Assembly (NCBI RefSeq): GCF_963921235.1
Contig: NC_086106.1
Location: 19,282,001 to 19,346,000, forward strand
DNA length: 64,000 bases
Direction: 5' to 3'
Origin: Mobula hypostoma
Lineage: Eukaryota
Shown: one piece after another, positions 3,561 to 62,200 of the stretch
Position numbering within the stretch: the first letter of the stretch is position 1
Layout: every line of letters starts with the position of its first letter
Made by a program: the position numbers and the translations under genes
Notes under the pieces: model-generated
What the model saw: only the letters and a program-made list of their open reading frames with translations
What the model was told of the DNA's origin: nothing
Database searches by the model: none

Positions 3561-3954
3561 CCCCTGGAGCCATTCCTACTAAACTACTATGCCCTAATAG
3601 ATGAGGAATGAACTAATGGGAACAGAAAGAGAGAAACCTTATGGTCTTATGGAAGGTGGAGCAGGACTGAACAGAGAAAATTCATGAGACATAATCTCCC
3701 ACACACAGAGCCTTGCTCACTAATCCTAATCTACCCCAAGGCCATTTGGCCCATCGAGTCTTTCGCCATTTTATCATGGCTGATCCATTTTCCCTCTCAG
3801 CCCCAATTGTCTGTCTACTACCCATATCTCTTCATACCCTGATTAATCAAGAATTTATTAACCTCTACCTTGAATATAGATATAGAATATTACAGCACAG
3901 TACAGGCCTTTCAGCCCACAATGTTGTGCCGACCCTCAAACCCTGCCTCCCATA

Positions 3955-4651
3955 TGTAAGGGGGTTACGACTTTTATGTTACTGCAGAGGCTAATTAAAA
4001 TGGCGTCTTTGTTATGTTAATCTGGGGAATGCGGCTTTGTTGTGTTGAACGCTGAGAAAGTTTGCGCTAGCAGCTTGTTTTTTCTTTAGAGTGTGATAAG
4101 TAAGTGCTATTAACCAATTGGGATAGTTGTTATGGTTTTGGTGTATTTGAAGATACTATATGCGCGGGGTTTTGGAGCAGAAGGCGGGAGAGCGAGACAG
4201 AGGATGGACCAGGTGCTGTGAGTCCGCTAACGGGGTCGGACCTCGAGCGGGACGTTCGGCGAGGAGACGGAGACGGACTCGTGTGGAACGTCTGGTTGAC
4301 CACCGTTGTTGGTCCCAGGCGGCCGGTCGAGGTGGTCCGAGGGGGTCGCAGGGTGAAGAAGAAGGTCCTTGAGCTCCAACGGTTTTTGTGCACGAAGAGA
4401 TTGAACTTTGATAAGTGTGGCGCCTTTTATTTTCCTTTTATATTTTATTCTCTCTTAATTATATAGTTCCAGTAATATCTATAAACTGTAAATCATTTAA
4501 TTGCATCTGGTGTATTGTCTGTTATTTGGGCGGAGTGGGGTACCTCACACAGCATCCATATAAACGAATTATCCAGTTTGCCGGGGCCGAGGCTGTTTCC
4601 CAAGACGACAGCGAGCCGAGCGACCCTGAGGGTGGCCGAGGGGTGGCTACA
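3955..4651 (+). repeat. 5' LTR (697 bp)
   Basis: Direct repeat of 7349-8057 with TG...CA termini; roughly 25-30 differences by eye (about 4%). Confidence 0.95.
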
Positions 4652-4653
4652 TT

Positions 4654-5346
4654 GTGGGGGCTCGTCCGGGATGGAGTCTGCTGGTATGCTGTGTGGGTGC
4701 CCTGTTTAAATCTGTAATGTGTGTCTCTGTGGGTTATTTGCTGGTGATTGCTGTATGCGTTGTGGGTGCGGTCTTTGTTCGAGTTCAGGCTGGCATTGAC
4801 GAGTTGGACGTGGCATTCGGGGCTGTCCATGCGGTTGGGAGAGAGAGGAAAGAGTGGTCTGATTTGGAGGTAGGGTCTACGAATAAATGTTCTAGCTCTG
4901 GCAGGCTCCGCCTGGCACTTGGGATAGTGTCCACCCCAAGAGGGGCGGAGACTTGCGAGACGTGGGCGGAGCGGATCTCTCAGTTGTTAGATGAGTGGCA
5001 GTGCTTGGTTGAGGGAGAGCGACAGGGATTGGTTGAAAGTTTGAGTAGGCGGGCTGGTGACGGTGTTAGAGCTGTCAGGTTCACTTACACTGTAGTGACA
5101 GCTGTCAGTTATTTGAAAGAGGGGGGAAAGTTTTCAGTGTGTCTTCTCTGGCGAGGAGGGCGGTTAAATTGCTTGCAGTGCCAGGGGGATCATTTCAGTG
5201 GATCAGTTGTACAGCTGATCAGAGAGGTGTTGGGAAACTTAGTGGAGGCCCAGTGGGGGAATGGCTTGAGGTCTCTGGGGAAGCACGTTCCCAGCAATGT
5301 ACCAATGAACTTCCGAAAGGAAAAGACCCTATTCCTGAAGGCTTAG
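4654..5346 (+). pseudogene. Degenerate PNMA-like gag of the Gypsy element
   Basis: [16 protein letters not shown]...RQGLVESL...VRAVR resembles the PNMA/Gypsy capsid motif (W.EQA...CS..EK..RL.ESL.G.A...VRA). Confidence 0.65.
4655..4672 (+). other. Primer-binding site, tRNA-Pro
   Basis: TGGGGGCTCGTCCGGGAT, 3 nt after the 5' LTR; an exact 18-nt complement of the tRNA-Pro 3' end (same as the canonical MLV PBS). Confidence 0.95.
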
Positions 5347-5714
5347 AGGGGCCACGCCCCAGGGTGTCGCTATGGATAGAGGGAAGTGATGCTAAAGCTA
5401 TCCTCGACCCCGGGGCACAGATCAAGTTGTTGTACAGTTCGTTTTACAACCGGTGTCTGAAGCATTTATCCTTGACAACCGCAAGGGCACCGGAGACTTT
5501 GGGTACCAGTGGCAGTCGTTATCCAGAAGACGATGATTGGTTAATGACCCTGGAGTTCGTTGGGGCATTGTCTGGGCACCCAGCGTGTCGAGTTGCTTCT
5601 AAGGACGTGTGTAGCAGCCTTGAGCCAGTACCGAATTTGAACGAGACCCGGCGGTGGTACAGCTTGGGGAAAGTAGCTGAGGGTGAGACCCTCTTAGTAG
5701 ATGCTCCGAACTAG
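5139..5714 (+). pseudogene. Degenerate aspartic protease region of pol
   Basis: AKAILDPGAQIKLLY resembles the LLDTGAQV protease motif. Same frame as ORF 5730-6902, separated only by a TAG at 5712-5714. Confidence 0.7.
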
Positions 5715-5729
5715 CACGAGGGAGGGGAG

Positions 5730-6902
5730 TTGACCGCTGAAGACACCTCAGTGAGAGAGAGGTCGCGGCAACTGGACCCTAGTGGCGTGGAAGATGAAGG
5801 CAGCGTGTGTGTGGATTATGCGATGTGGTTTAATGTGCTGCATCTGAGGGGTGGATGTTGCCAGATCCTGAGGAGTGCGGCTGTTGAGCAGAAGATGGCC
5901 TTTACTAGTTCCCTAGGATTCTTCCGATCCGAAAAGATGCCCAAGGGCATATCCGGAGCCCCTGCATCTTTCCCGCGGGGCATGAGGAAGACCATGGGGG
6001 AAGTGAAGGTGTGTGGAGTTTTGACGTATGCGGATGACCGCCTAGAGCTTGGATTCGCCTGGGGGGACTATGAGGCGAGGCGAGTGGCTGAGCCCGGGCG
6101 ACTGAAGCGAAGTGTCAAATGTGGAGGAGTTTTTGACCGGAGGAGTTTGGTGCAATGTGAGGAAAATGACCCGACATACCAGTTGAACTTCCTGGTGTTG
6201 GGACAGACGGTGGTGGACCGGGGGATGGAAACCCAGGTCGCCAATCTGAATGAGACGCAGGGAAGAGAGGGGATTTGCACCGCACTGCGGTCATATACTG
6301 ATGAATTAATCCAGCAAGAAGAAACAATGACCCACCTTCGAAAGGATCAGCAGAAACTCAAGACGTCGATTCAGAACAGATTGGAAGACTTGCAAGTTGG
6401 GGAAGATCAAGGAAGTGTTCTGACTAAGATCAACAGAAAACCGAGAGCCCAGGGAGGGGAGTTTGACTACACTCCCGAGGAGGTGAAGAAATGGAGGACA
6501 GATCTCGGAAAAGGGAGGCGGACGCTTGAAAGGAACCTGAAGATGACTATCGCGAGTTTAAATGAAGTGGAAAAACTGAAAGTTGACCTGGAGGACGTCC
6601 TCAGGAAGAAACAACCGGAGGCTGAACATTCTTTATCTGCTGCTTTTCAGGTCAGGGAGGAAGAAGCTGGTGGGGTAACTGTGACCCAGATTGAGATGGC
6701 CAGGAACCCTGAGTCAGAACTGCGGAGGCTGTGGCGAGAGTTGAAGGAGTCCCCGAAGAAGCTGACGTCTCGACTGCAGGAGGCTGAAGGGGTAGCCCCG
6801 GCTAAATGTTTCAGTTTGGAGAAACTTAAACAGCAGCTACCGATCGAGGGAATGAGGAAGGGTACGATTCGAAGGATGATGTGCTGCACATGTGGAACAT
6901 GA
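5730..6902 (+). pseudogene. Chimeric 390-codon ORF: Gypsy RT fragment + RNase H fragment + myosin heavy-chain rod fragments
   Basis: RT motifs KMAF...MPKGISGAPASF...TYADD (YADD at 6027-6038); RNase H-like SLVQCEENDPTYQLNFLVLGQTVVDR; then from about 6222 a myosin II rod-like sequence. Confidence 0.85.
6222..6848 (+). other. Captured, intronless myosin class II heavy-chain rod segments (MYH16-like)
   Basis: Gapless correspondence over about 108 aa to the recalled myosin S2 rod (LEDLQVGEDQ vs LDDLQAEEDK; NLKMTIASLNEVEKLKVDLEDVLRKK vs MYH16-type DLKMTIDNLNEMERSKLDLEEVVKKR). Then EEAGGVTVTQIEM vs EEAGGATSAQIEM, and KKLTSRLQEAE...[13 protein letters not shown] vs KKLAQRLQDAE...AKCASLEKTKQRL. Confidence 0.85.
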
Positions 6903-7335
6903 TGCCTTTCGCTAACTTCCCCGTGATTGAGGAAGAGACCTTTGGCCCTTCTCCCACTGAGTCAGGTGTAGTGGGGAGGGCTAGCTGTGGGCAGTCTGAG
7001 TTACGGCAGGATCAGGAAGGAGGAGAGGCGGGGCCCCGGACATGGGACGGGGGGCTCCGAGCTGAGGTGGTGGCCTGAGTGAGAGAGGAGTTGGCAAGCA
7101 GGCCTGAGGTATCCCTAGTAGTGTCTGAGCCATTTGGGTTTAGGTGAGGGGGTACGGAGGTCTCGGAGGGTTAAGAAGCTCCCAGATAGGTTGGCCTATG
7201 TAGCGCCCCTGGGATGGGAGTAAGGTCCACTGTTTGGGGAGCACTGTCACTGTGTGTATTTGTGTATGTGTGTGTTGTGTGTCTGCAGGACTGGTTGGCG
7301 AGTTATTTAGAAGTCATGAGGACATGACTTTATTT

Positions 7336-7348
7336 GGTGGGGGGAGAG
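7336..7348 (+). other. Polypurine tract
   Basis: GGTGGGGGGAGAG immediately 5' of the 3' LTR. Confidence 0.85.
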
Positions 7349-8057
7349 TGTAAGGGGGTTTCGACTTTTATGTTACTGCGGAGGCTAATTAAAATGGCGT
7401 CTTTGTTATGTTAATCTGGGGAATGCGGCTTTGTTGTGTTAAACGCTGAGAAAGTTTGCGCTAGCAGCTTGTTTTTCCTTTAGAATGTGATAAGTAAGTG
7501 CTATTAACCAATTGGGATAGTTGTTATGGTTTTGGTGTATTTGAAGATACTGTATGCGCGGAGTTTTGGGGCAGACGGCGGGAGAGTGAGACAGAGGATG
7601 GACCAGGTGCTGTGATGTCCGTTAACGGGGTCGGACCCCGAGCGGGACGTTCGGCGAGGAGACGGAGACGGACTCGTGTGGAGCGTCCGGTCGACCACCG
7701 TTGTTGGTCCCAGGCGGCCGGTCGAGGTGGTCCGAGGGGGTCACAGGGTGAAGAAGAAGGTCCTTGAGCTCCAACGGTTTTTGTGCATGAAGAGATTGAA
7801 CTTTGATAATTGTGGCGCCTTTTATTTTCCTTTTATATTTTATTCTCTTTTAATTATATAGTTCCAGTAATATCTATAAACTGTAAATCATTTAATTGCA
7901 TCTGGTGTATTGTCTGTTATTCGGGCGGGGTGGGGTACCTCACACAGCATCCACACAAACGAATTACCCAGTTTGCTGAGGCCGAGGCTGTTTCCCAAGA
8001 CGACAGCGAGCCGAGCGACCCTGAGGGTGGCCGGGGGGGGGGGGGCGGGTGGCTACA
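7349..8057 (+). repeat. 3' LTR (709 bp)
   Basis: Direct repeat of 3955-4651 with an expanded G-run near its end. Confidence 0.95.
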
Positions 8058-8765
8058 CATAAAAGCCCCCACCTTAAATTCCTCTATATACTGTCCAGTA
8101 GTCTCTTAAACTTCACTAGTGTATCTGCCTCCACCACTGACTCAGGCAGTGCATTCCACGCACCAACCACTCTCTAAGTAAAAAACCTTCCTCTAATATC
8201 CCCCTTGAACTTCCCACCCCTTTAGCCATGTGCTCTTGTATTGAGCAGTGGTGCCCTGGGGAAGAGGCGCTGGCTATCCACTCTATCTATTCCTCTTATT
8301 ATCTTGTACACCTCTATCATGTCTCCTCTCATCCTCCTTCTCTCCAAAGAGTAAAGCCCTAGCTCCCTTAATCTCTGATCATAATGCATACTTTCTAAAC
8401 CAGGCAGCCTCCTGGTAAATCTCCTCTGTACCCTTTCCAATGCTTCCACATCCTTCCTATAGTGAGGTGACCAGAACTGGACACAGTACTCCAACTGTGG
8501 CCTAACCAGAGTTTTATAGAGCTGCATCATTACATCGCGACTCTTAAACTCTGTCCCTCGACTTATGAAAGCTGACACCCCATAAGCTTTCTTAACTACC
8601 CTATCCACCTGTGAGGCAACTTTCAGGGATCTGTGGACATGTACCCCGAGATCCCTCTGCTCCTCCACACTACCAAGTATCCTGCCATTTACTTTGTACT
8701 CTGCCTTGGAGTTTGTCCTTCCAAAGTGTACCACCTCACACTTCTCCGGGTTGAACTCCATCTGC
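8058..8765 (-). mobile_element. CR1/L2-type LINE 3' portion (its terminus continues at about 3880-3954, across the LTR element)
   Basis: ORF 8222-8806: WQMEFN..KCEVVHFGR...RPQLEYCVQFWSP...LERVQRRFTR, the standard CR1 RT C-terminus. Confidence 0.9.
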
Positions 8766-18829: not shown

Positions 18830-21800
18830 AGCCAAAACTCAGTGGTTGGGAAGTGTTGAAGTCTCTTTCTTTAGGATGAGGTTTTGGTGTATTTGGAGAC
18901 GAATGATAACATATGTCAGAGTCAGCGTAGTTTCTGCAATGGGAAATCTTGCCTGACAACCCTGTTAGATTTCTTTGAGGAAATAACAAGCAGGCTGGAC
19001 AAAGGAGAGGCAGTGAATGTTATTTACTTGGATTTTGAAAAGTTATTTGATAAGGAGCAACACATGAGGCTGCTTTACAAGATAAAATTGAATGGCATTA
19101 CAGCAGAGATATTGGCATGGACAGAAGAATGGCTGGCAGGAGGCAGAAAGTGGAAATAAACAGGGCCTTCTCTGGTTGGTTGCCGTTGACTAGTGGTGTT
19201 CCTCAGGGGTCAGTATTGAGCGCTACTTTTCACATTGTTTGGTTATGATTCAGATAATGGAATTAATGGCTTTGTGGCAAAGTTTGTGGATGATACAAAG
19301 ATAGGTGGAGGGGTAGGTGGTGCTGAGGAAGCAATGCAATTGCAGTACAACTTAGATAAATTGGAAGAATGGGCAAAAAGTGGCAGATGGATTACAATCT
19401 TGGGAAATACATGATAATGCATTTAGGTAAATCCTTTATTCTTTATACTTTATGGTACTTTACACTTTATTGTCGCCAAACAGTTGGTACTAGAACGTAC
19501 AATCATCACAGCGATATTTGATTCTGCACTTCCCACTCCCTGGATTACAAATATTAAATATTACAAATAGTAAAAATTAGTAAATATTAAAAATTTAGAT
19601 TATAAATCATAAATAGAAAATAGAAAATTGGAAAGTAAGGTAGTGCAAAAAAACTGAGAGGCAGGTCCGGATATTTGGAGGGTACGGCCCAGATCCGGGT
19701 CAGGATCCGTTCAGCAGTCTTTTCACAGTTGGAAAGAAGCTGTTCCCAAATCTGGCCGTAGGAGTCTTCAAGCTCTTGAGCCTTCTCCTGGGGGGAAGAG
19801 GGACGAAAAGTATGTTGGCTGGGTGGGTCGTGTCCTTGATTATCCTGGCAGCACTGCTCTGACAACGTGCGGTGTAAAGTGAGTCCACGGACGGAAGATT
19901 GTTTTCTGTGATGTGCTGCGCCGTGTTCACGATCTTCTGCAGCTTCTTCCGGTCTTGGACAGGACAACTTCCATACCAGGTTGTGATGCACCCTAGAAGA
20001 ATGCTTTCTACGGTGCATCTATAAAAATTAGTGAGGGTTTTAGAGGACAGGCCAAATTTCTTTGTTTTCTCAGGAAGTAAAGGCGCTGTTGGGCCTTCTT
20101 GGCAGTGGACTCTGCTTGGCTGGACCAAGTCAGGTCATTTGTGATACTGACCTTGAGGAACTTAAAGCTTTTGACCTGTTCCACTTGTGCACCACCGATG
20201 TAAATTGGGTCGTGCGGTCCGCTACTCCTTCTGAAGTCAACAACCAATTCCTTCGTCTTGCTGATGCTGAGGGATAAGTTATTGTCTTCGCACCATGCCA
20301 CCAGGTCCTTAATTTCCTCCCTGTACTCAAACTCATCATTACCGGAGATACGGCCTACAATTGTTGTGTCATCAGCAAACTTATATATTGAGCTTGATGG
20401 AAACATGGCTACAGAATAATGGGTGTACAGTGAGTACAGCAGGGGGCTGAGTACACAGTCTGGTTGGGCACCGTTGCTCAGAGTGATTGTAGAGGAGAGC
20501 TTGTCCCGTATTTTTACAGCCTGGGTCCTGTCTATGAGGAAGCTGAAGATCCAGCTGCAGATCGGAATGCTAACGCCCAGGTTCCGGAGTTTAGGAACCA
20601 GTTTATTTGGAATGATGGTATTAAAGGCAGAGCTGTAGTCAATGAAAAGGAGCCTTACGTATGCGTCTTTATTCTCCAGGGGATCTGAGGAGGAATGTAG
20701 GGCCAGAGAGATGGCATCTGCCGTTGACCTGTTGCTCCGGTAGGTGAATTGCAAAGCGTCGAGGTTGACCGGTAGGCTGTGGTTGATGTGTGCCATAATC
20801 AATCTCTCGAAGCACTTCATAGTAATTGATGTCGGAGCCACAGGTTGATAGTCATTCAGGCATGCCACCTTGCTCTTCTTCGGCACTGGGATTATCGTTG
20901 TCTTCTTAAAACATGAAGGGATCTTAGACTGAAGCAAGGAGCAGTTGAAGATGTCAGCAAACATTCCAGCTAGCTCGCTTGCACAGGCCTGGAGAACCCG
21001 TCCTGGGACGCCATCTGGGCCCGTCGCCTTCCTTGGATTTATCTTCAGGAAGGCCCTTCTAACGTCCTCCTCAGTGATGATGAATATCGATGCCACCAGG
21101 TCCGGTTCATCCGGAGGGAGCGGGACGCTCCTCTTCTGTTCGAGTCTTGCGTAGAATATGTTAAGTTCATCAGGAAAAGAAGTACCAGAGTTATTGATAT
21201 TCCCAGCCTTTTCTTTGCACCCAGTGATCTCATTTAGACCCTGCCATAGTCTACTGGCATGTCTTTGGTTAGCCTGGGCTCGATATTGCCTCTTGGCGCC
21301 CTTAATGGCTTTCCGGAGTTCATGTCTGGATTCCGTGTAGTGACTGGTATCCCCAGACCTAAAAGCCGCAGCTCTAGCCTTTAAAAGGGACTTGACCTCC
21401 TCATTCATCCAAGATTTCCGGTTAGGGAATACCCGGATCGTCTTGCGAGACACACAGTCCTCCGTGCATTTCCATATAAAGTCCGTGACAGCTGAGGCAT
21501 ACTCATGGAGGTTAGCTGCCGAGTCCATGAATACTAACCAGTCCACCGATTCAAAGCAGTCACGGAGGACCTCACCTGTTTCCTCCGTCCAACGCTACAC
21601 TACTTTTGACAGCGTGAACTCCCGCTTCAGTTTCTGTTTGTAAACCGGGAGGAGGAGTACGGCCTGATGGTCCGATTTTCCGAAGTGAGGTCGTGGTGCT
21701 CGGACACTGTGGCACTGACAAGCTCCTGCAGCCCGGACCTGGAACACCTGTCGGTGAAGTGTCGTCCCTACTATCTGCCACAGGAATTCACTGTGTAACA

Positions 21801-23920
21801 GTGGTCAAGTATATTCGGGCCTGCAGTGGGGCAGGAGACATGTTGGTATAACTTTGGCATCGCATTTCTGAGGCTGGCCTGGTTAAAGTCCCCAGCCGTA
21901 ATGGTAAAGCCTCCGGATACCTGGTCTCAAGTTCACTGATGTTGGCATACAGTGTGTTCAGAGCACACTCCACGTCCACCTGGGGGGGAATGTAGACTGC
22001 TGTCAGTATGACCGAGGTGAATTCCCGTGGCAGATAGTTGGGACGACACTTCACCGACAGGTGTTCCAGGTCCGGGCTGCCGGATCTTGTCAGTGCCACT
22101 GTGTCCGAGCACCACGCAGTGTTGATCAGTAGGCAGACACCACCTCCCCTCATCTTGCCCAAAGACGTCGTGCGGTCCATCCGATAGATCGAAAACCCCT
22201 CCGGTCAGATGGCACAGTTGGGGGTGGCAGGGGAGAGCCAGGTCTCAGTGAAACAGAATACACAGCAGTTCTGCATCTCCCTGCAGTAGGTGAGTCTCCC
22301 TTTAAGATCATCCACCTTGTTCTCTCTGGCTTGCACATTAGCTAGCAGGATGGTGGGCATAGGGACCGTGAAGCCCCTCAGCTTCAATCTGACCAGCAGC
22401 CCAGCTCTTTTCCCATGCTTCCTCGGTAAATAGTGCATCTTTCCAGGTTTCCGTCGATGGCAGTGTGTTGTTGTCAGCTCTTTGAGGTAGGTGGACGCGT
22501 CCCGCGGGAATCGATCAGCAGGCCGCGTCGTCGTGCGCTCCGGGTCGGGCCGAGTAACGGGGGAGGTTCCGCTGCCACTTCCAGCTGCCGGGGACCTGGG
22601 CTGTCGATTGGGTCGGGCCCCGAAGCCGACACTTAATCCCAGAGGGCCGGGCTCCTGGCTGAAACGAGTCCGTAAACTGAGTCACGGTTGCGGAGCCTCC
22701 GCTCCAGCCGAGCCTCGGGCTCGATTTCCGAGGTTGGCGGCGGAGGCCTCACTTCCAGCAGCTGTGGATGGCCACCAATGGGACTTTACGGTGGTCGCTC
22801 CGGGGAAGCGTCTGCGGCACCTTGAGGTCTCCGCCGTCACTTCTGTGTGGTCGCCTGCTCCGGAGAGGTGCTGGTCGGAATGGGCCGTGTCTCCAAGCGC
22901 TCCGGCCCGGTAGCAGACCGCGGGTCTCCGGGAACGTGGTCGGGTCCAGGTGCGGTCCGGAGTTTAAGAAGCAGATCTGGCGCGGTGGTCTCCATCTGGG
23001 TCAGTAGCTTCGCCAGAGTGTTGTTGATCTTGATCTTGCTAAAGTGGAGTTTTAGAAGGGTTTCTCGGTTACAGGACAGTGGCGAGGGCCGTTTGCCCGG
23101 GAGAGCTCGCCCAAAGTCACCGGTTACAGGCGGCATCTTTAACGGATATGGAACAATGGAACAATAGTGCGAACTATTATCTAAATGGGGAAAAGGTTCA
23201 AACAACAGAGGTGCAAAGGGACTTACGAGTCCTCGTGTAAGGCTCCCAGAAGGTTAATTCACAGGTTGAGTCTGTGGTAGAGAAGGCAAATGCAATATTA
23301 GCATTTATTTCAAGTGGAATAGAATATAAAAGCAAGGAGATAATGCTGAGGCTTTATAAGGCACTAATCTGGCCACACTTGGAGTATTGTCAACAGTCCT
23401 GGGCCCCTTTTCTTAGAAAGGGTGTGTTTTCATTGGAGAGAGTCACAAGGATGATTCTAGAAATGAAGGGGTTAACATATGAGGAGCGTTTGGCAGCTTT
23501 GGGCCTGTACTCGCTGGAACTTAGAAGAATGCGGACAGATCCCATTGAAACCTACCGAATGTTGATGGGATGAGATAGGGTGGATGTGGAGAGGATGTTT
23601 CCTATGGAGGGAGTAAGCAGAACAAGAGGGCACAGTTTCAGAATTGATGGGTGATCTTTTAGAACAGAGGTAAGGAGGATTTTTTTTAGCCTGAGAATAG
23701 TGAATCTGTGGAATGCTCTGCCACAGACTGCAGTGGAGGCCAATTCTGTGGGTATTTTTAAAGCAGAAGTTGATATTTTCCTGATCAGTCAGGGCATCTG
23801 AGGATATGGTGAGAAGGCAGCTGTATGGGGTTGAGTGGAATCCAGGATGAGCCATGATGGAATGGCAGGGCAGCCTTGATGGGCTGAATGGCCTAATACT
23901 GCTCCTGTCTCACGGTCTTT
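18830..23920 (+). mobile_element. CR1-type LINE 3' portion, split by the Rex1-type insertion at 19432-23140
   Basis: The left part ends ...ATAATGCATTTAGGTAAA (MHLGK) at about 19430. The right part resumes GGAACAATAGTGCGAACTATTATCTAAATGGG (NNSANYYLNG) at about 23157, the contiguous CR1 RT motif. Confidence 0.85.
19432..23140 (-). mobile_element. Near-full-length Rex1/Babar-type LINE (APE + RT)
   Basis: ORF 20008-21546 (512 aa: KATGPDGVPGRVL, LLFIDYSSAFNTI, KFADDTT), APE ORFs at 21788-22438, and a 3' UTR ending in (TACTTTA)-like repeats. Confidence 0.9.
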
Positions 23921-26560: not shown

Positions 26561-29500
26561 GAAAATATACTGGAATGCCGGCTGTTTGAGAAGGCTGATT
26601 GCGGAATGTCTGAAGAAACAAGTGATGAGGAATAACAAATATAGAAATCAAACAGGATGTGGATCTTTTATGTGGCAAGATTGTAGAAGGGATAATGACA
26701 GCGACAACAATAAGTATCCCAAGGAAATGGAATAGAGCTGAAAAGAAAATGGTGCCACGGTGGAGAAAAGATTGTGGGGAAACAATTAAGCATCGTAATA
26801 GAGCCTTTAGAATGGAAAAGAGGGCACACAATTTTCCAAAAGTAATTGAGAATAAACATATGCAGCAATAGTAAGAAAAACAATTTTAAAGGTGAAAGAG
26901 GAATATTGGAGTACGATTTGTGACTCCGGAGGAATACAAACACCCATTGACAGTGATTGGAAGATGATAAAAAGAATGAATGCTGTCACCAGGGACATTG
27001 GATACCCAGAATTATCTATGGGGAAGGTTTGATTTTAAGTTATATGAATTGGAAATTTGAGTTTGAATGCTGAATTGGATAAAGGATTTTTAAATTGGTA
27101 GACCTGTCATGGTGCGACCAGGGAAATCAGTCAAGTAAACCAATTATGGAAAAGGGAACCCCTCAGAGAAGTGTTGTTAGTCCATTAGTATTTACTATCA
27201 TAATAAATGGTATATTTTCTAATATAAATAGTTGCATTGGAATTTCATTGTGTGGACGATGGAGCTATGTGGAAAAGGGGTGGGAATGTGAAATTTATAA
27301 CACGGAAACTTTAAGAGACAAAGGTTAACATAGAAACATAGAAAATAGGTGCAGGAATAGGCCATTTGGCCCTAAGAATCTGCACCACCATTCAGTATGA
27401 TCATGGTTGATCATCCAACTCAGAACCCTGTACAAGCCTTCCCTCCATACCCCCTGATCCCTTTAGCCACAAGGGCCATATCTAACTCCCTCTTAAATAT
27501 AGCCAATGAACTGGCCTCAACTGTTTCCTGTGGCAGAGAATTCCACAGATTCACCACTCTCTGTGTGAGGAAGTTTTTCCTAATCTCTGTCCTAAAAGGC
27601 TTCCCCTTTATCGTCAAACTGTGACCCCTCGTTCTGGACTTCCCCAACATGGGGAACAATCTTCCTGCATCTAGCCTGTCCAATCCCTTTAGGATTTTAT
27701 ACATTTCAATAAGATTCCCCCTCAATCTTCTAAATTCCAACAAATATAAGCCTAGTCGATCCAGTCTTTCATCATATGAAAGTCCTGCCATCCCAGGAAT
27801 CAATCTGGTGAACCTTCTTTGTACTCTCTCTATGGCAAGGATGTCTTTCCTCAAATTAGGGGACCAGAACTGCACACGATACTCCAGGTGTGGTCTCACC
27901 AAGGCCTTGTACAAATGCAGTAGTACCTCCCTGCTCCTGTACTCGAATCCTCTTGCTATGAATGCCAGCATACCATTTGCCTTTTTCACCGCCTGCTGTA
28001 CCTGCATGCCCACTTTCAATAACTGGTGTATAATGACACCCAGGTCTCGTTGCACCTCCCCTTTTCCGAATCGGCCACCATTCAAATAATAATCTGTTTT
28101 CCTGCTTTTGCCACCAAAGTGGATAACCTCACATTTATCCACATTAAATTGCATCTGCCATGAATTTGCCCACTCACCTAACCTATCCAAGTCACCCTGC
28201 ATCCTCTTAGCATCCTCCTCACAGCTAACACTGCCGCCCCGCTTTGTGTCATCCGCAAACTTGGAGATGCTGCATTTAATTCCCTCATCCAGGTCATTAA
28301 TATATATTGTAAACAACTGGGGTCCCAGCACTGAGCCTTGGAGTACCCCACTAGTAACGGCCTGCCATTCTGAAAAGGTCCCGTTTATTCCCACTCTTTG
28401 CCTCCCGTCTGCCATCCAGTTCTCTATCCACATCAATACCCTACCCCAATATCCTGTGCTTTAAGTTTGCACACTAATCTCCTGTGTGGTACCTTGTCAA
28501 AAGCCTTTTGAAAATCCAAATATACCACATCCACTGGTTCTCCCCTATCCACTCTATAAGTTACATCCTCACAAAATTCCATCAGATTCCTCAGACATGA
28601 TTTTCCTTTCACAAATCCATGCTGACTTTGTCCGATGATTTCACCGCTTTCCAAATGTGCTGTTATCACATCTTTGATAACTGACTCCAGCATTTTCCCC
28701 ACCACTGATGTTAGGCTAACCGGTCTATAATTCCCTGGTTTCTCTCTCCCTCCTTTTTTTAAACAGTAGGGTTACATTAGCCACCCTCCAATCCTCAGGA
28801 ACTAGTCCAGAATCTAAAGAGTTTTGAAAAATTATCACTAATGCATCCAACTATTTCTTGGGCTACTTCCTTAAGCACTCTGGGATGCGGACCATCTGGC
28901 CCTGGGAATTTATCTGCCTTTAATCCCTTCAATTTACCTAACACCACTTTCCTACTAACATGTATTTCCCTCTGTTCCTCCATCTCACTGGACCCTCTGT
29001 CCCCTACTATTTCCGGAAGATTCTTTCTGTCCTCCTTAGTGAAGACAGAACCAAAGTAGTTATTCAGTTGGTCTGCCATGTCCTTGCTCCCCATAATCAA
29101 TTCACCTATTTCTGGCTGTAGGGGAACTACATTTGTCTTAACCAATCTTTTTCTTTTCACATATCTACAAAAGCTTTTACAGTCAGTTCTTATGTTCCCT
29201 GCCAGTTTTCTCTCATAATCTTTTTTCCCTTTCCTAATTTAGCCCTTTGTCCACCTCTGCTGGACTCTGAATTTCTCTCAGTCCTCAGGTGAGCCACTTT
29301 TTCTGGCTAATTTGTGTGCTTCTTCTTTGGAATCGATACTATCCCTAATTTTCCTGGTCAGCCATGGGTGCACTACCTTCCCTGATTTATTCTTTTGCCA
29401 GACTGGGATGAACAATTGTTGTAGTTCATCCATGCGATCTTTAAATGCTTGCCATTGCATATCCACCGTCAACCCTTTAAGTGTCATTTGCCAGTCTATC

Positions 29501-59600: not shown

Positions 59601-59814
59601 TCCCTGAGCTGTTCGGTGTTGGCAGTGCAGGAGGCACAATAATGTCAGTCGGTGAGATGTGCATCTGAGGAACTTTTACGTCCTGGAACCGATCTTTTCC
59701 ACAGATACTGCCCGACCTGCTGAGTTCCTCCAGCGTGTTGTGAGGTGGTAAGTACAGTTCTGTCTGGATCAGTGTTCCTCTGAGTCTTCATAAAAACACC
59801 CATCAAACTGACAG

Positions 59815-60138
59815 CAGGGTGCTGGGGTGAAGAGAGGAACTGGATCTGGGTGTGTCACAGGGTGCTGGGGTGAAGAGAGGAACTGGATCTGGGTGTGTCA
59901 CAGGGTGCTGGGGTGAAGAGGGGAACTGGATCTGGGTGGGTCACAGGGTGCTGGGGTGAAGAGGGGAACTGGATCTGGGTGGGTCACAGGGTGCTGGAGT
60001 GAAGAGGGGATCTGGATGTGTCACAGGGTGCTGGGGTGAAGAGGGGAACTGGAGCTGGGGGTGTCGCAGGGTGCTGGGGTGAAGAGGGGATCTGGATGTG
60101 TCACAGGGTGCTGGGGTGAAGAGGGGAACTGGATCTGG
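59815..60138. repeat. G-rich minisatellite: 43/37-bp units, 7 full copies plus 1 partial
   Basis: Unit CAGGGTGCTGGGGTGAAGAG(A/G)GGAACTGGATCTGGGTG(T/G)GTCA; unit starts at 59815, 59858, 59901, 59944, 59987 (37 bp), 60024, 60067 (37 bp), 60104 (partial). Confidence 0.97.
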
Positions 60139-60539
60139 CAGGATCAGCTCAGAAGAAATTTGCAATGAAATGACACTTGGGTATTTGTAAAAAATGATTG
60201 ATATTGAGTCAGTAGATCAGGGGAGATGGTCTGATCTTAGTCTGTATTGTAGTGAGTGGATCCAACATTGGGCAGTATGAACAACAGATGGGCAATTTTA
60301 TTTATTCATCTTTTGGGATCTGGGCTTTGCCGGTAAAGACTGAATGAATTACACATCTGAGCTGCCATTCAGAGGGCATTTGGAGACAATAGCATTGATG
60401 GGTCAGGAGTAATAAATAGCCTCGAAGGGTAAGGATGAGAGATCTCCTTCCCTGAGGGATATCAGTAAAACTGAAGGGTCATCATTACTAATGACTAGAT
60501 TTAAAAACAATGCCAATTATTAAGATGCTAATTATTAAG

Positions 60540-62200
60540 GGAAACAAGTAGTGAGATCATGGAAACTGTACAGATTGAAAAGGAGGAGGTGCTTGCTGTA
60601 TTGAGGAAAATTAAAGTGGATAAATCCCCGGGATCTGACAGGGTGTTCCCTCGGACCTTGAAGGAGACTAGTGTTGAAATTGCGGGGGCCCTGGCAGAAA
60701 TACTTAAAATGTCGCTGTCTACAGGTGAGGTGCCGGAAGATTGGAGATTGTTGTTCATTTGTTTAAAAAAGGATCGAAAAGTAATCCAGGAAATTATAGG
60801 CCGGTAAATTTAACGTTGGTAGTAGGTAAGTTATTGGAGGGAGTTCTAAGAGACAGAGTCTACAAGCATTTGGATAGACAGGGACTTATTAGGGAGAGTC
60901 AACATGGCTTTGTGCATGGTAGGTCATGTTTGACCAATCTATTGGAGTTTTTCGAGGAGGTTACCAGGAAAGTGGATGAAGGGAAGGCAGTGGATATTGT
61001 CTACATGGACTTCAGTAAGGCCTTTGACAAGGTCCCGCATGGGAGGTTAGAAAGGAAAATTCAGTCGCTAGGTATACATGGAGAGGTGGTAAATTGGATT
61101 AGACATTGGCTCAATGGAAGAAGCCAAAGAGTGGTAGTAGAGAATTGCTTCTCCGAGTGGAGGCCTGTGACTAGTGGTGTGCCACAGGGATCAGTGCTGG
61201 GTCCATTTTTATTTGTCATCTATATCAATGATCTGGATGATAATGTGGTAAATTGGATCAGCAAATTTGCTGATGATACAAAGATTGGAGGTGTAGTAGA
61301 CAGTGAGGAAGGTTTTCAGAGCCTGCAGAGGGACTTGGACCAGCTGGGAAAATCAGCTGAAAAATGGCAGATGGAGTTTAATACAGACAATTGTGAGGTA
61401 TTGCAGGTTGGAAGGACAAACCAAGGTAGAATATACAGGGTTAATGGTAAGGCACTGAGGAGTGCAGTAGAACAGAGGGATTTGGGAATACAGATACAAA
61501 ATTCCCTAAAAGTGGCGTCACAGGCAGATAGGGTCATAAAGAGAGCTTTTGGTACATTGGCCTTTATTAATCAAAGTATTGAGTATAAGAGCTGGAATGT
61601 TATGATGAGGTTGTATAAGGCATTGGTGAGGCTGAATCTGGAGTATTGTGTTCAGTTTTGGTCACCAAATTACAAGAAGGATATTAATAAGGTTGAAAGA
61701 GTGCAGAGAAGGTTTACAAGGATGTTGCCGGGACTTGAGAAACTCAGTTACAGAGAAAGGTTGAATAGGTTAGGACTTTATTCCCTGGAGCATAGAAGAA
61801 TGAGGGGAGATTTGATAGAGGTATATAAAATTATGATGGGTATAGATAGAGTGAATGCAAGCAGGCTTTTTCCACTGTGGCAAGGGGAGAAAAAAACCAG
61901 AGGACATGGGTTAAGGGTGAGGGGAGAAAAGTTTAAAGGGAACATTAGTGGGGGCTTCTTCACATAGAGAGTGGTGGGAGTATGGAATGAACTGCCAGAC
62001 GAGGTGGTAAATGCGGGTTCTTTTTTAACATTTCAGAATAAATTGGACAGATACATGGATGGGAGGTGTATGGAGGGATATGGTCCGTGAGCAGGTCAGT
62101 GGGACTAGGCAGAAAATGGTTCTGCACAGCCAAGAAGGGCCAAAAGGCCTGTTTCTGTGCTGTAGTTCTTCTATGGTTTCTATGGTTTCTATGTTGGAAA
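60540..62200 (+). mobile_element. 5'-truncated CR1-type LINE with a largely open RT frame
   Basis: ORF 60741-61967 (408 aa: NYRPVNLT, YMDFSKAFDKVPH, SGVPQGSVLGP, KFADDTK); tail (TTTCTATGG)n. Confidence 0.93.

Follow-up and report, generated by a model that had tools for sequence, protein, structure and literature searches.

Positions 3955-8057 of the window (the whole 64,000-nucleotide stretch of Mobula hypostoma DNA analysed here) contain a Gypsy LTR element in which the reading frame of pol continues into spliced myosin sequence. That a host myosin mRNA was captured and the product amplified is near certain, and the window element is a dead, decayed copy of the resulting non-autonomous family. 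The account that best fits the evidence, and which we consider probable, is of a single capture into an element from which integrase was already missing, followed by movement with the help of relatives and by selection of the pol frame to remain open for ribosomes. The features of the window copy are as follows.

3951..3954 (+), left target-site duplication CATA, from the flank sequence
3955..4651 (+), 5' LTR, TG...CA, from the pairwise LTR alignment
4655..4672 (+), primer-binding site (PBS-like 18-mer), also present in integrase-bearing relatives
4717..5346 (+), degenerate gag frame, with a PNMA-like capsid remnant at 4903-5085
5223..5558 (+), protease-region remnant in the pol frame, 51% to the relative L129
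5232..5238 (+), candidate frameshift heptamer G-GGA-AAC, phased for a -1 shift from gag to pol
5712..5714 (+), stop codon private to the window copy, without counterpart in most copies
5793..6107 (+), RT remnant, truncated, its YxDD motif at 6027-6038, dN/dS near 1
6132..6211 (+), RNase H fragment, from its match to an integrase-bearing relative
6212..6849 (+), captured spliced mRNA of a MYH16-like rod gene, in six blocks, from alignment to the donor exons
6850..7078 (+), C-terminal tail of pol with the family stop at 7076-7078; private frameshift near 6865 in the window copy
7336..7348 (+), polypurine tract, from the sequence
7349..8057 (+), 3' LTR, from the pairwise LTR alignment
8058..8061 (+), right target-site duplication CATA, from the flank sequence

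An earlier note on this DNA had described an LTR element at 3955-8057 with LTRs about 4% apart, a polypurine tract (PPT) and a CATA duplication, and this description holds: the LTRs have TG and CA as their first and last bases, their alignment of 697 bases contains 27 mismatches (3.9%), and CATA is found on both flanks. The element has the Ty3/Gypsy structure of two TG...CA LTRs, a PBS, a PPT and a short target-site duplication, and its remnants keep the pol order protease, RT, RNase H, followed by the tail as in L129. The PBS is presumably of the tRNA-Pro type; in a search for the corresponding host tRNA gene its pattern was present at 839 places, the 3 examined not being tRNA genes, and the 64-kb window gave no tRNA or Rfam match. 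The protease, RT, RNase H and cargo remnants all lie in one frame, and the uninterrupted passage from RT via an RNase H fragment into myosin rod, likewise described in the note, is real, the 5715-6902 frame comprising 395 codons. The RT portion gives a weak RVT_1 match (E 0.019) and is 42% to an integrase-bearing relative, comparison with which also delimits an RNase H piece of 30 residues (6132-6221), while about 170 residues are absent between the two remnants. No integrase was matched in the window element, as the note had stated, and the absence of integrase, the gap between RT and RNase H and a dN/dS near 1 set it apart from an autonomous Gypsy element. Most copies lack the 5712-5714 stop and the 6865 frameshift, both of which are damage to the window copy, and the pol frame of the family extends past the 6902 of the window to 7078. 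The element is inserted in an older repeat (window 3655-3954 and 8058-8360), other copies of which are found in contigs that join both flanks without the element. Elsewhere in the window are two element copies, 92-95% alike, at 1-2200 and 20805-23051, the second having an open stretch of 528 codons (frame 20011-21594, -), together with frames of the same kind at 27423-28460 (-) and 60729-61964 (+), all of which we take to be LINE-like, and a minisatellite with units of 37-43 bases at 59799-60180.

In a protein search the cargo matched sarcomeric myosins (best PDB E 1.7e-7), myosin chains making up 12 of the 15 matches; a generic coiled coil is ruled out, as the matches are myosin-specific and confirmed at the DNA level. 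A search of the genome with a fast-myosin exon led to a diverged gene at G000:C68:14.6 Mb, and the donor is this MYH16-like paralogue of the host (G000:C68:14,524,969-14,707,477), with 82% DNA identity between cargo and spliced donor exons over 638 aligned bases. The fast skeletal, cardiac-type and non-muscle myosin genes and the MYH16 gene on C36 were also considered as donors, and gave short, weaker matches or none. The window cargo matches seven donor exons spread over 182 kb, and all 9 of the donor exons delimited have an AG acceptor and a GT donor. Exon-exon junctions are crossed cleanly at 6374/5, 6461/2, 6607/8 and 6689/90, with a fifth at 6754/5 where just five bases of the upstream exon remain, and the introns missing from the cargo measure 3-29 kb in the donor. 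Capture of a spliced mRNA, as the note had proposed, is thereby established by mapping to the host MYH gene, and intron absence at the five junctions rules out capture at the DNA level. The note had placed the myosin at 6222-6848, correctly as to its identity as rod sequence, while its true extent is 6212-6849. It had also read the cargo as a mosaic of at least three segments in native order, and the pieces are indeed non-contiguous, but they number six blocks of consecutive donor exons and derive from one longer capture followed by deletions. The least-deleted copy, L103, is 92% identical to the donor over 974 bases in nine exon blocks. About 210 codons of donor mRNA were skipped at a short repeat, and every carrier that reaches that far has either this skip or a deletion that includes it.

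The MYH16-type donor suggested in the note was borne out, in that the donor groups with skate myosin-16-like (support 97/93) and its exon splits are those of the MYH16-like gene on C36. The latter gene (C36:112.7 Mb) is mostly 81-96% identical to skate myosin-16-like in per-exon comparison and the donor 50-81%; because the C36 gene is closer, the donor was rejected as the MYH16 orthologue and is considered a paralogue. Open rod exons of the donor reach the C-terminus (G000:C68:14,480,496-14,737,192, +), but a search of the 235 kb that lie upstream of the first of the captured exons gave no exon encoding the motor domain, and there is no match to the myosin N-terminus near the gene. A Narcine protein model that groups with the donor (100/98) also starts just before the rod. 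From these exon and model boundaries, the donor may be a motor-less MYH16 paralogue. About 0.6 Mb from it lies a tandem cluster of at least 8 fast-type myosin heavy-chain genes (G000:C68:15.30-15.91 Mb). Long myosin-tail matches, covering several exons' worth of the profile and mostly containing stops, are present at C18:48,745,314-48,746,731, C50:30,689,110, C184:304,888, C157:172,388, C21:138,691,427, and C12:196,941,089 and 197,103,644; the two that were compared with the element (L048 and L049) do not match it, and loci of this type may be other processed myosin copies.

The mobile non-autonomous family anticipated in the note is real. A diagnostic 20-mer across a subfamily-specific deletion occurs 334 times in the genome (0 times for the reversed control), a floor since the 20-mer excludes older subfamilies. 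The join between RNase H and myosin is spanned by 40/40 scored matches at 96-100% identity (from 867 candidates), and an assembly chimera is ruled out by these matches and by contigs from 3/4 runs that bridge position 6212; the sequence stretch is present in 20 of the 24 listed runs, from four organisms, with no run recorded as RNA among them. All 20 of the other copies compared whole are 3.9-4.1 kb, 11 of them with an exact 4-base target duplication of their own, and their LTR divergence ranges from 0.02 to 0.10 (median about 0.04). In addition to the short form of the element, a long form has a cargo larger by 120 bases, and older forms are 88-93% identical to the donor, each with its own deletions. 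Different subfamilies retain different, partly non-overlapping pieces of cargo. The capture is older than the window insertion, as the note had argued. Near-identical public proteins are labelled Mobula, and RT-myosin or myosin-tail fusions occur in protein models of two stingray genera, Hypanus and Hemitrygon, two of the models having the 42-codon deletion of the window copy; the cross-species evidence (stingrays and Narcine) consists of protein models, not DNA. The scattering of myosin-like pseudo-ORFs predicted in the note is visible in public gene models, where P0043, P0045, P0048, P0052 and P0193, named myosins or MYH16, resemble element copies, 2 of the five being plain fusions of the RT remnant and the cargo.

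The order of integrase loss and capture can be read from related elements. The integrase-bearing relative L129 has a 1453-codon pol in the order RT, RNase H, integrase, and L135 (G000:C1:254.32 Mb) has neither integrase nor myosin, the end of its RNase H being joined in frame to the pol tail. L135 and L170-L176 constitute a myosin-free, integrase-less sister family, in which the integrase deletion keeps the pol frame in L135. This join is matched end to end by 8/10 loci examined, the other 2 continuing into integrase. In four older myosin carriers the 3' join of the cargo repeats the one left by integrase deletion in the myosin-free family, and relative to L135 the cargo replaces only about 60 bases. 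Element and mRNA share microhomology of 10/11 bases at the 5' join, and of 4 exact bases (10/12 overall) at the 3' join. When 31 rows of the 3' region were placed on a midpoint-rooted tree, the 20 that carry myosin all fell into a single clade (100/100), with which 3 of the 5 integrase-less rows group (98/96), the other two being unresolved at the base. One myosin clade beside integrase-less rows, together with the common 3' join, suggests that a single capture into a lineage already without integrase is likely.

Neither the cargo nor the RT remnant shows conservation as protein. The dN/dS of the cargo relative to the donor is 0.68-1.21 for each of 59 copies, and pN/pS on changes common to at least 80% of copies of a subfamily (shared changes) is 1.06 for the short form (30 copies) and 0.95 for the long form (20 copies). 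The cargo has 7 prolines, and the donor 0. The dN/dS of the RT remnant relative to integrase-bearing relatives is 0.54-2.1, compared with 0.06-0.09 for RT among distant integrase-bearing elements. With values near 1 in both parts and prolines gained, the protein is not conserved, which differs from functional captured genes of the v-onc or CrocERV type. The working RT-coiled-coil fusion envisaged in the note is therefore not borne out, and appears unlikely on this pattern of substitution.

By contrast with the protein, the frame seems to have been kept. Shared changes in the short form comprise 29 synonymous and 74 non-synonymous changes and 0 stops vs 4.9 expected (P 0.007), and those in the long form 36 synonymous, 86 non-synonymous and 0 stops vs 6.0 expected (P 0.002), the two tests having largely one history and not being independent; among singleton changes, stops are at 3-4%. 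The shared deletions in the cargo are of 120, 27, 126, 9 and 213 bases, all multiples of three; backbone DNA alignments to the older subfamilies are too noisy for a count of deletions. Among rare indels, 63/68 in the short form and 128/184 in the long form break the frame (56/184 in frame in the latter), and among deletions guided by microhomology (pairs with 3-8 matching bases) 42-71% are expected in frame. Recurrent stops are mostly at CGA codons, as expected from CpG decay after insertion. Of the 28 short-form copies, 10 have a non-CpG stop at 5373 and cluster on the tree, 6 have a stop at 5176 in the gag frame, and 8 have an altered heptamer. These changes have passed through at least some rounds of copying, and their inheritance implies that the last burst had no strict need of an intact upstream frame, so that the requirement for the frame is likely to be quantitative, or limited to the downstream frame. 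Sampling took the copies most similar to the window sequence or to a gene model with an open frame, and may thereby favour intact ones. Taken as a whole, these counts suggest that selection was likely for an open frame and not for a protein.

In the mechanism we propose, MYH16-like mRNA of the host would have been packaged together with element RNA, and a double template switch would have inserted myosin between the two microhomologies. The product would have been mobilised in trans by autonomous relatives, and the myosin would be filler that survived because both switches preserved the frame. Some ribosomes would shift -1 at 5232 and then continue as far as the 7078 stop, which lies shortly before the 3' LTR, and their transit of the whole internal region may protect the RNA from nonsense-mediated decay or aid packaging. 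The gag ATG (4717) is retained in 25/29 short-form and 17/20 long-form copies, and the gag stop (5344-5346) is kept as well; the heptamer at 5232, a candidate -1 frameshift site by its sequence and phase, is intact in 18/29 and 15/20, respectively, and is also found in an integrase-bearing relative; and the terminal stop of the pol frame, 270 bases before the 3' LTR, is retained in 47/49 copies. The search for a helper identified none, the integrase-bearing relatives matching the LTR just in patches at 70-85%. Nonsense-mediated decay is reportedly inhibited by low-level readthrough, in work that concerns readthrough of stops and not frameshifting (PMC5360307), and a review describes the outcome after a frameshift as set by the position of the final stop (PMC9661723).

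Several other explanations share the capture or the spread with this account and differ in what they make of the frame or of the order of events. The most serious of them, which we nevertheless regard as unlikely, sees the cargo as travelling neutrally and attributes the open frame to luck and to the in-frame bias of microhomology-guided deletions. It is consistent with a dN/dS near 1, with an in-frame null of up to 0.71 per event, with the inherited stop at 5373 and with sampling biased to similar copies, but it would have to accommodate the lack of any stop among 103 shared substitutions in the short form (P 0.007) and 122 in the long form (P 0.002), and about nine shared frame-keeping rearrangements, for which the chance is about 0.01-0.04 at 0.6-0.7 each; stingray models add more in-frame joins, though these gene models were chosen as open. 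That a Gag-Pol-myosin fusion benefits the element or its host, for instance by giving the particle a coiled-coil scaffold, would explain why the frame is kept and why the ATG, heptamer and terminal stop are mostly kept, and is made very improbable by the pN/pS of 1.06 and 0.95 on shared changes, the 7 prolines vs 0 in the donor, the retention of different, partly non-overlapping pieces in different subfamilies, and the unconstrained RT remnant.

The note had considered that the myosin stands in place of the integrase, and the window copy and most copies do show myosin at the integrase position; recombination between subfamilies can, moreover, blur the order of events. However, direct replacement of the integrase of an autonomous element by myosin mRNA does not fit the four older carriers, whose 3' join is the integrase deletion join of the myosin-free family, nor the position of that multi-copy, integrase-less family beside the myosin clade, and we give it as little credence as a useful fusion. 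Less probable still is retention of the cargo for an RNA-level effect on the host, for example via small RNAs against the donor gene, for which there is precedent only, in Drosophila telomeric elements with captured piRNA-pathway genes (PMC13534243); the donor is a muscle-type gene, the cargo is at 82% identity, where the same source reports almost no targeting, and the frame would be left unexplained. Capture into an integrase-less element followed by selection for an open frame remains the favoured explanation.

Tan et al. 2016 described LTR-mediated retrocopies, with partial mRNA between the halves of an LTR element, microsimilarity at the joins and re-retroposition (PMC5131818); the ray capture is of this kind, and its mechanism is already known. 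The cargo is an intron-free partial mRNA with one LTR element on both sides, there is microsimilarity at both joins, and further retroposition is evident from the 334 exact motif matches and distinct target sites. The retrocopies of Tan et al. 2016 are alike in that mRNA replaces part of an internal ORF, with microsimilar joins and further retroposition, but the cases described there are young with few copies, whereas the ray family has several subfamilies, at least 334 copies and relatives in other ray genera, and its frame is open under neutral amino-acid drift (PMC5131818). Maize Bs1, as described in the same source, is likewise a non-autonomous LTR element that contains parts of host-gene exons and was amplified again with its switch points unchanged, but has one to five copies and three donor genes, compared with hundreds of copies and one donor in rays (PMC5131818). 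Old mRNA captures that were propagated in a non-mammalian vertebrate are exemplified by CrocERV29 (KIT-ligand) and CrocERV31 (nectin3), reported by Chong et al. 2014 as ERVs with intact cargo ORFs under purifying selection, in contrast to the Gypsy backbone, fragmentary cargo and dN/dS near 1 of the ray family (PMC4299795). The PNMA-gag Gypsy elements of the L129 type share with the family the gag type, the order protease-RT-RNase H, the pol tail motif, the PBS type and partial LTR similarity, and differ in having a 1453-codon pol with integrase and an RT under purifying selection. Unusual here are the scale (copy number), the survival of the cargo through several subfamilies and in more than one genus, and the keeping of a frame but not of its protein. 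A search of openly accessible articles, repeat libraries such as Repbase and Dfam aside, turned up no description of the family or of the donor.

The family represents a large, old capture of host mRNA by a Gypsy element in a vertebrate, and the donor suggests that batoids may have a myosin rod gene without a motor. In public gene models of Mobula and Hypanus, copies of the element go under the names 'myosin-16-like', 'MYH16' or 'myosin heavy chain', and such names would inflate counts of ray myosin genes. A broader reading, which we advance tentatively and rate at somewhat below an even chance, is that translation through a meaningless frame is required for copying, that a muscle mRNA has served as in-frame filler across ray families, and that the donor is a previously undescribed MYH16 paralogue that lacks a motor. 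Survival of the donor allows all cargo changes to be polarised, and with such polarity one can test why long open frames persist in defective LTR elements. If the reading is true, the cargo and its intact donor outgroup would constitute a natural experiment that sets selection for ribosome transit against selection for protein.
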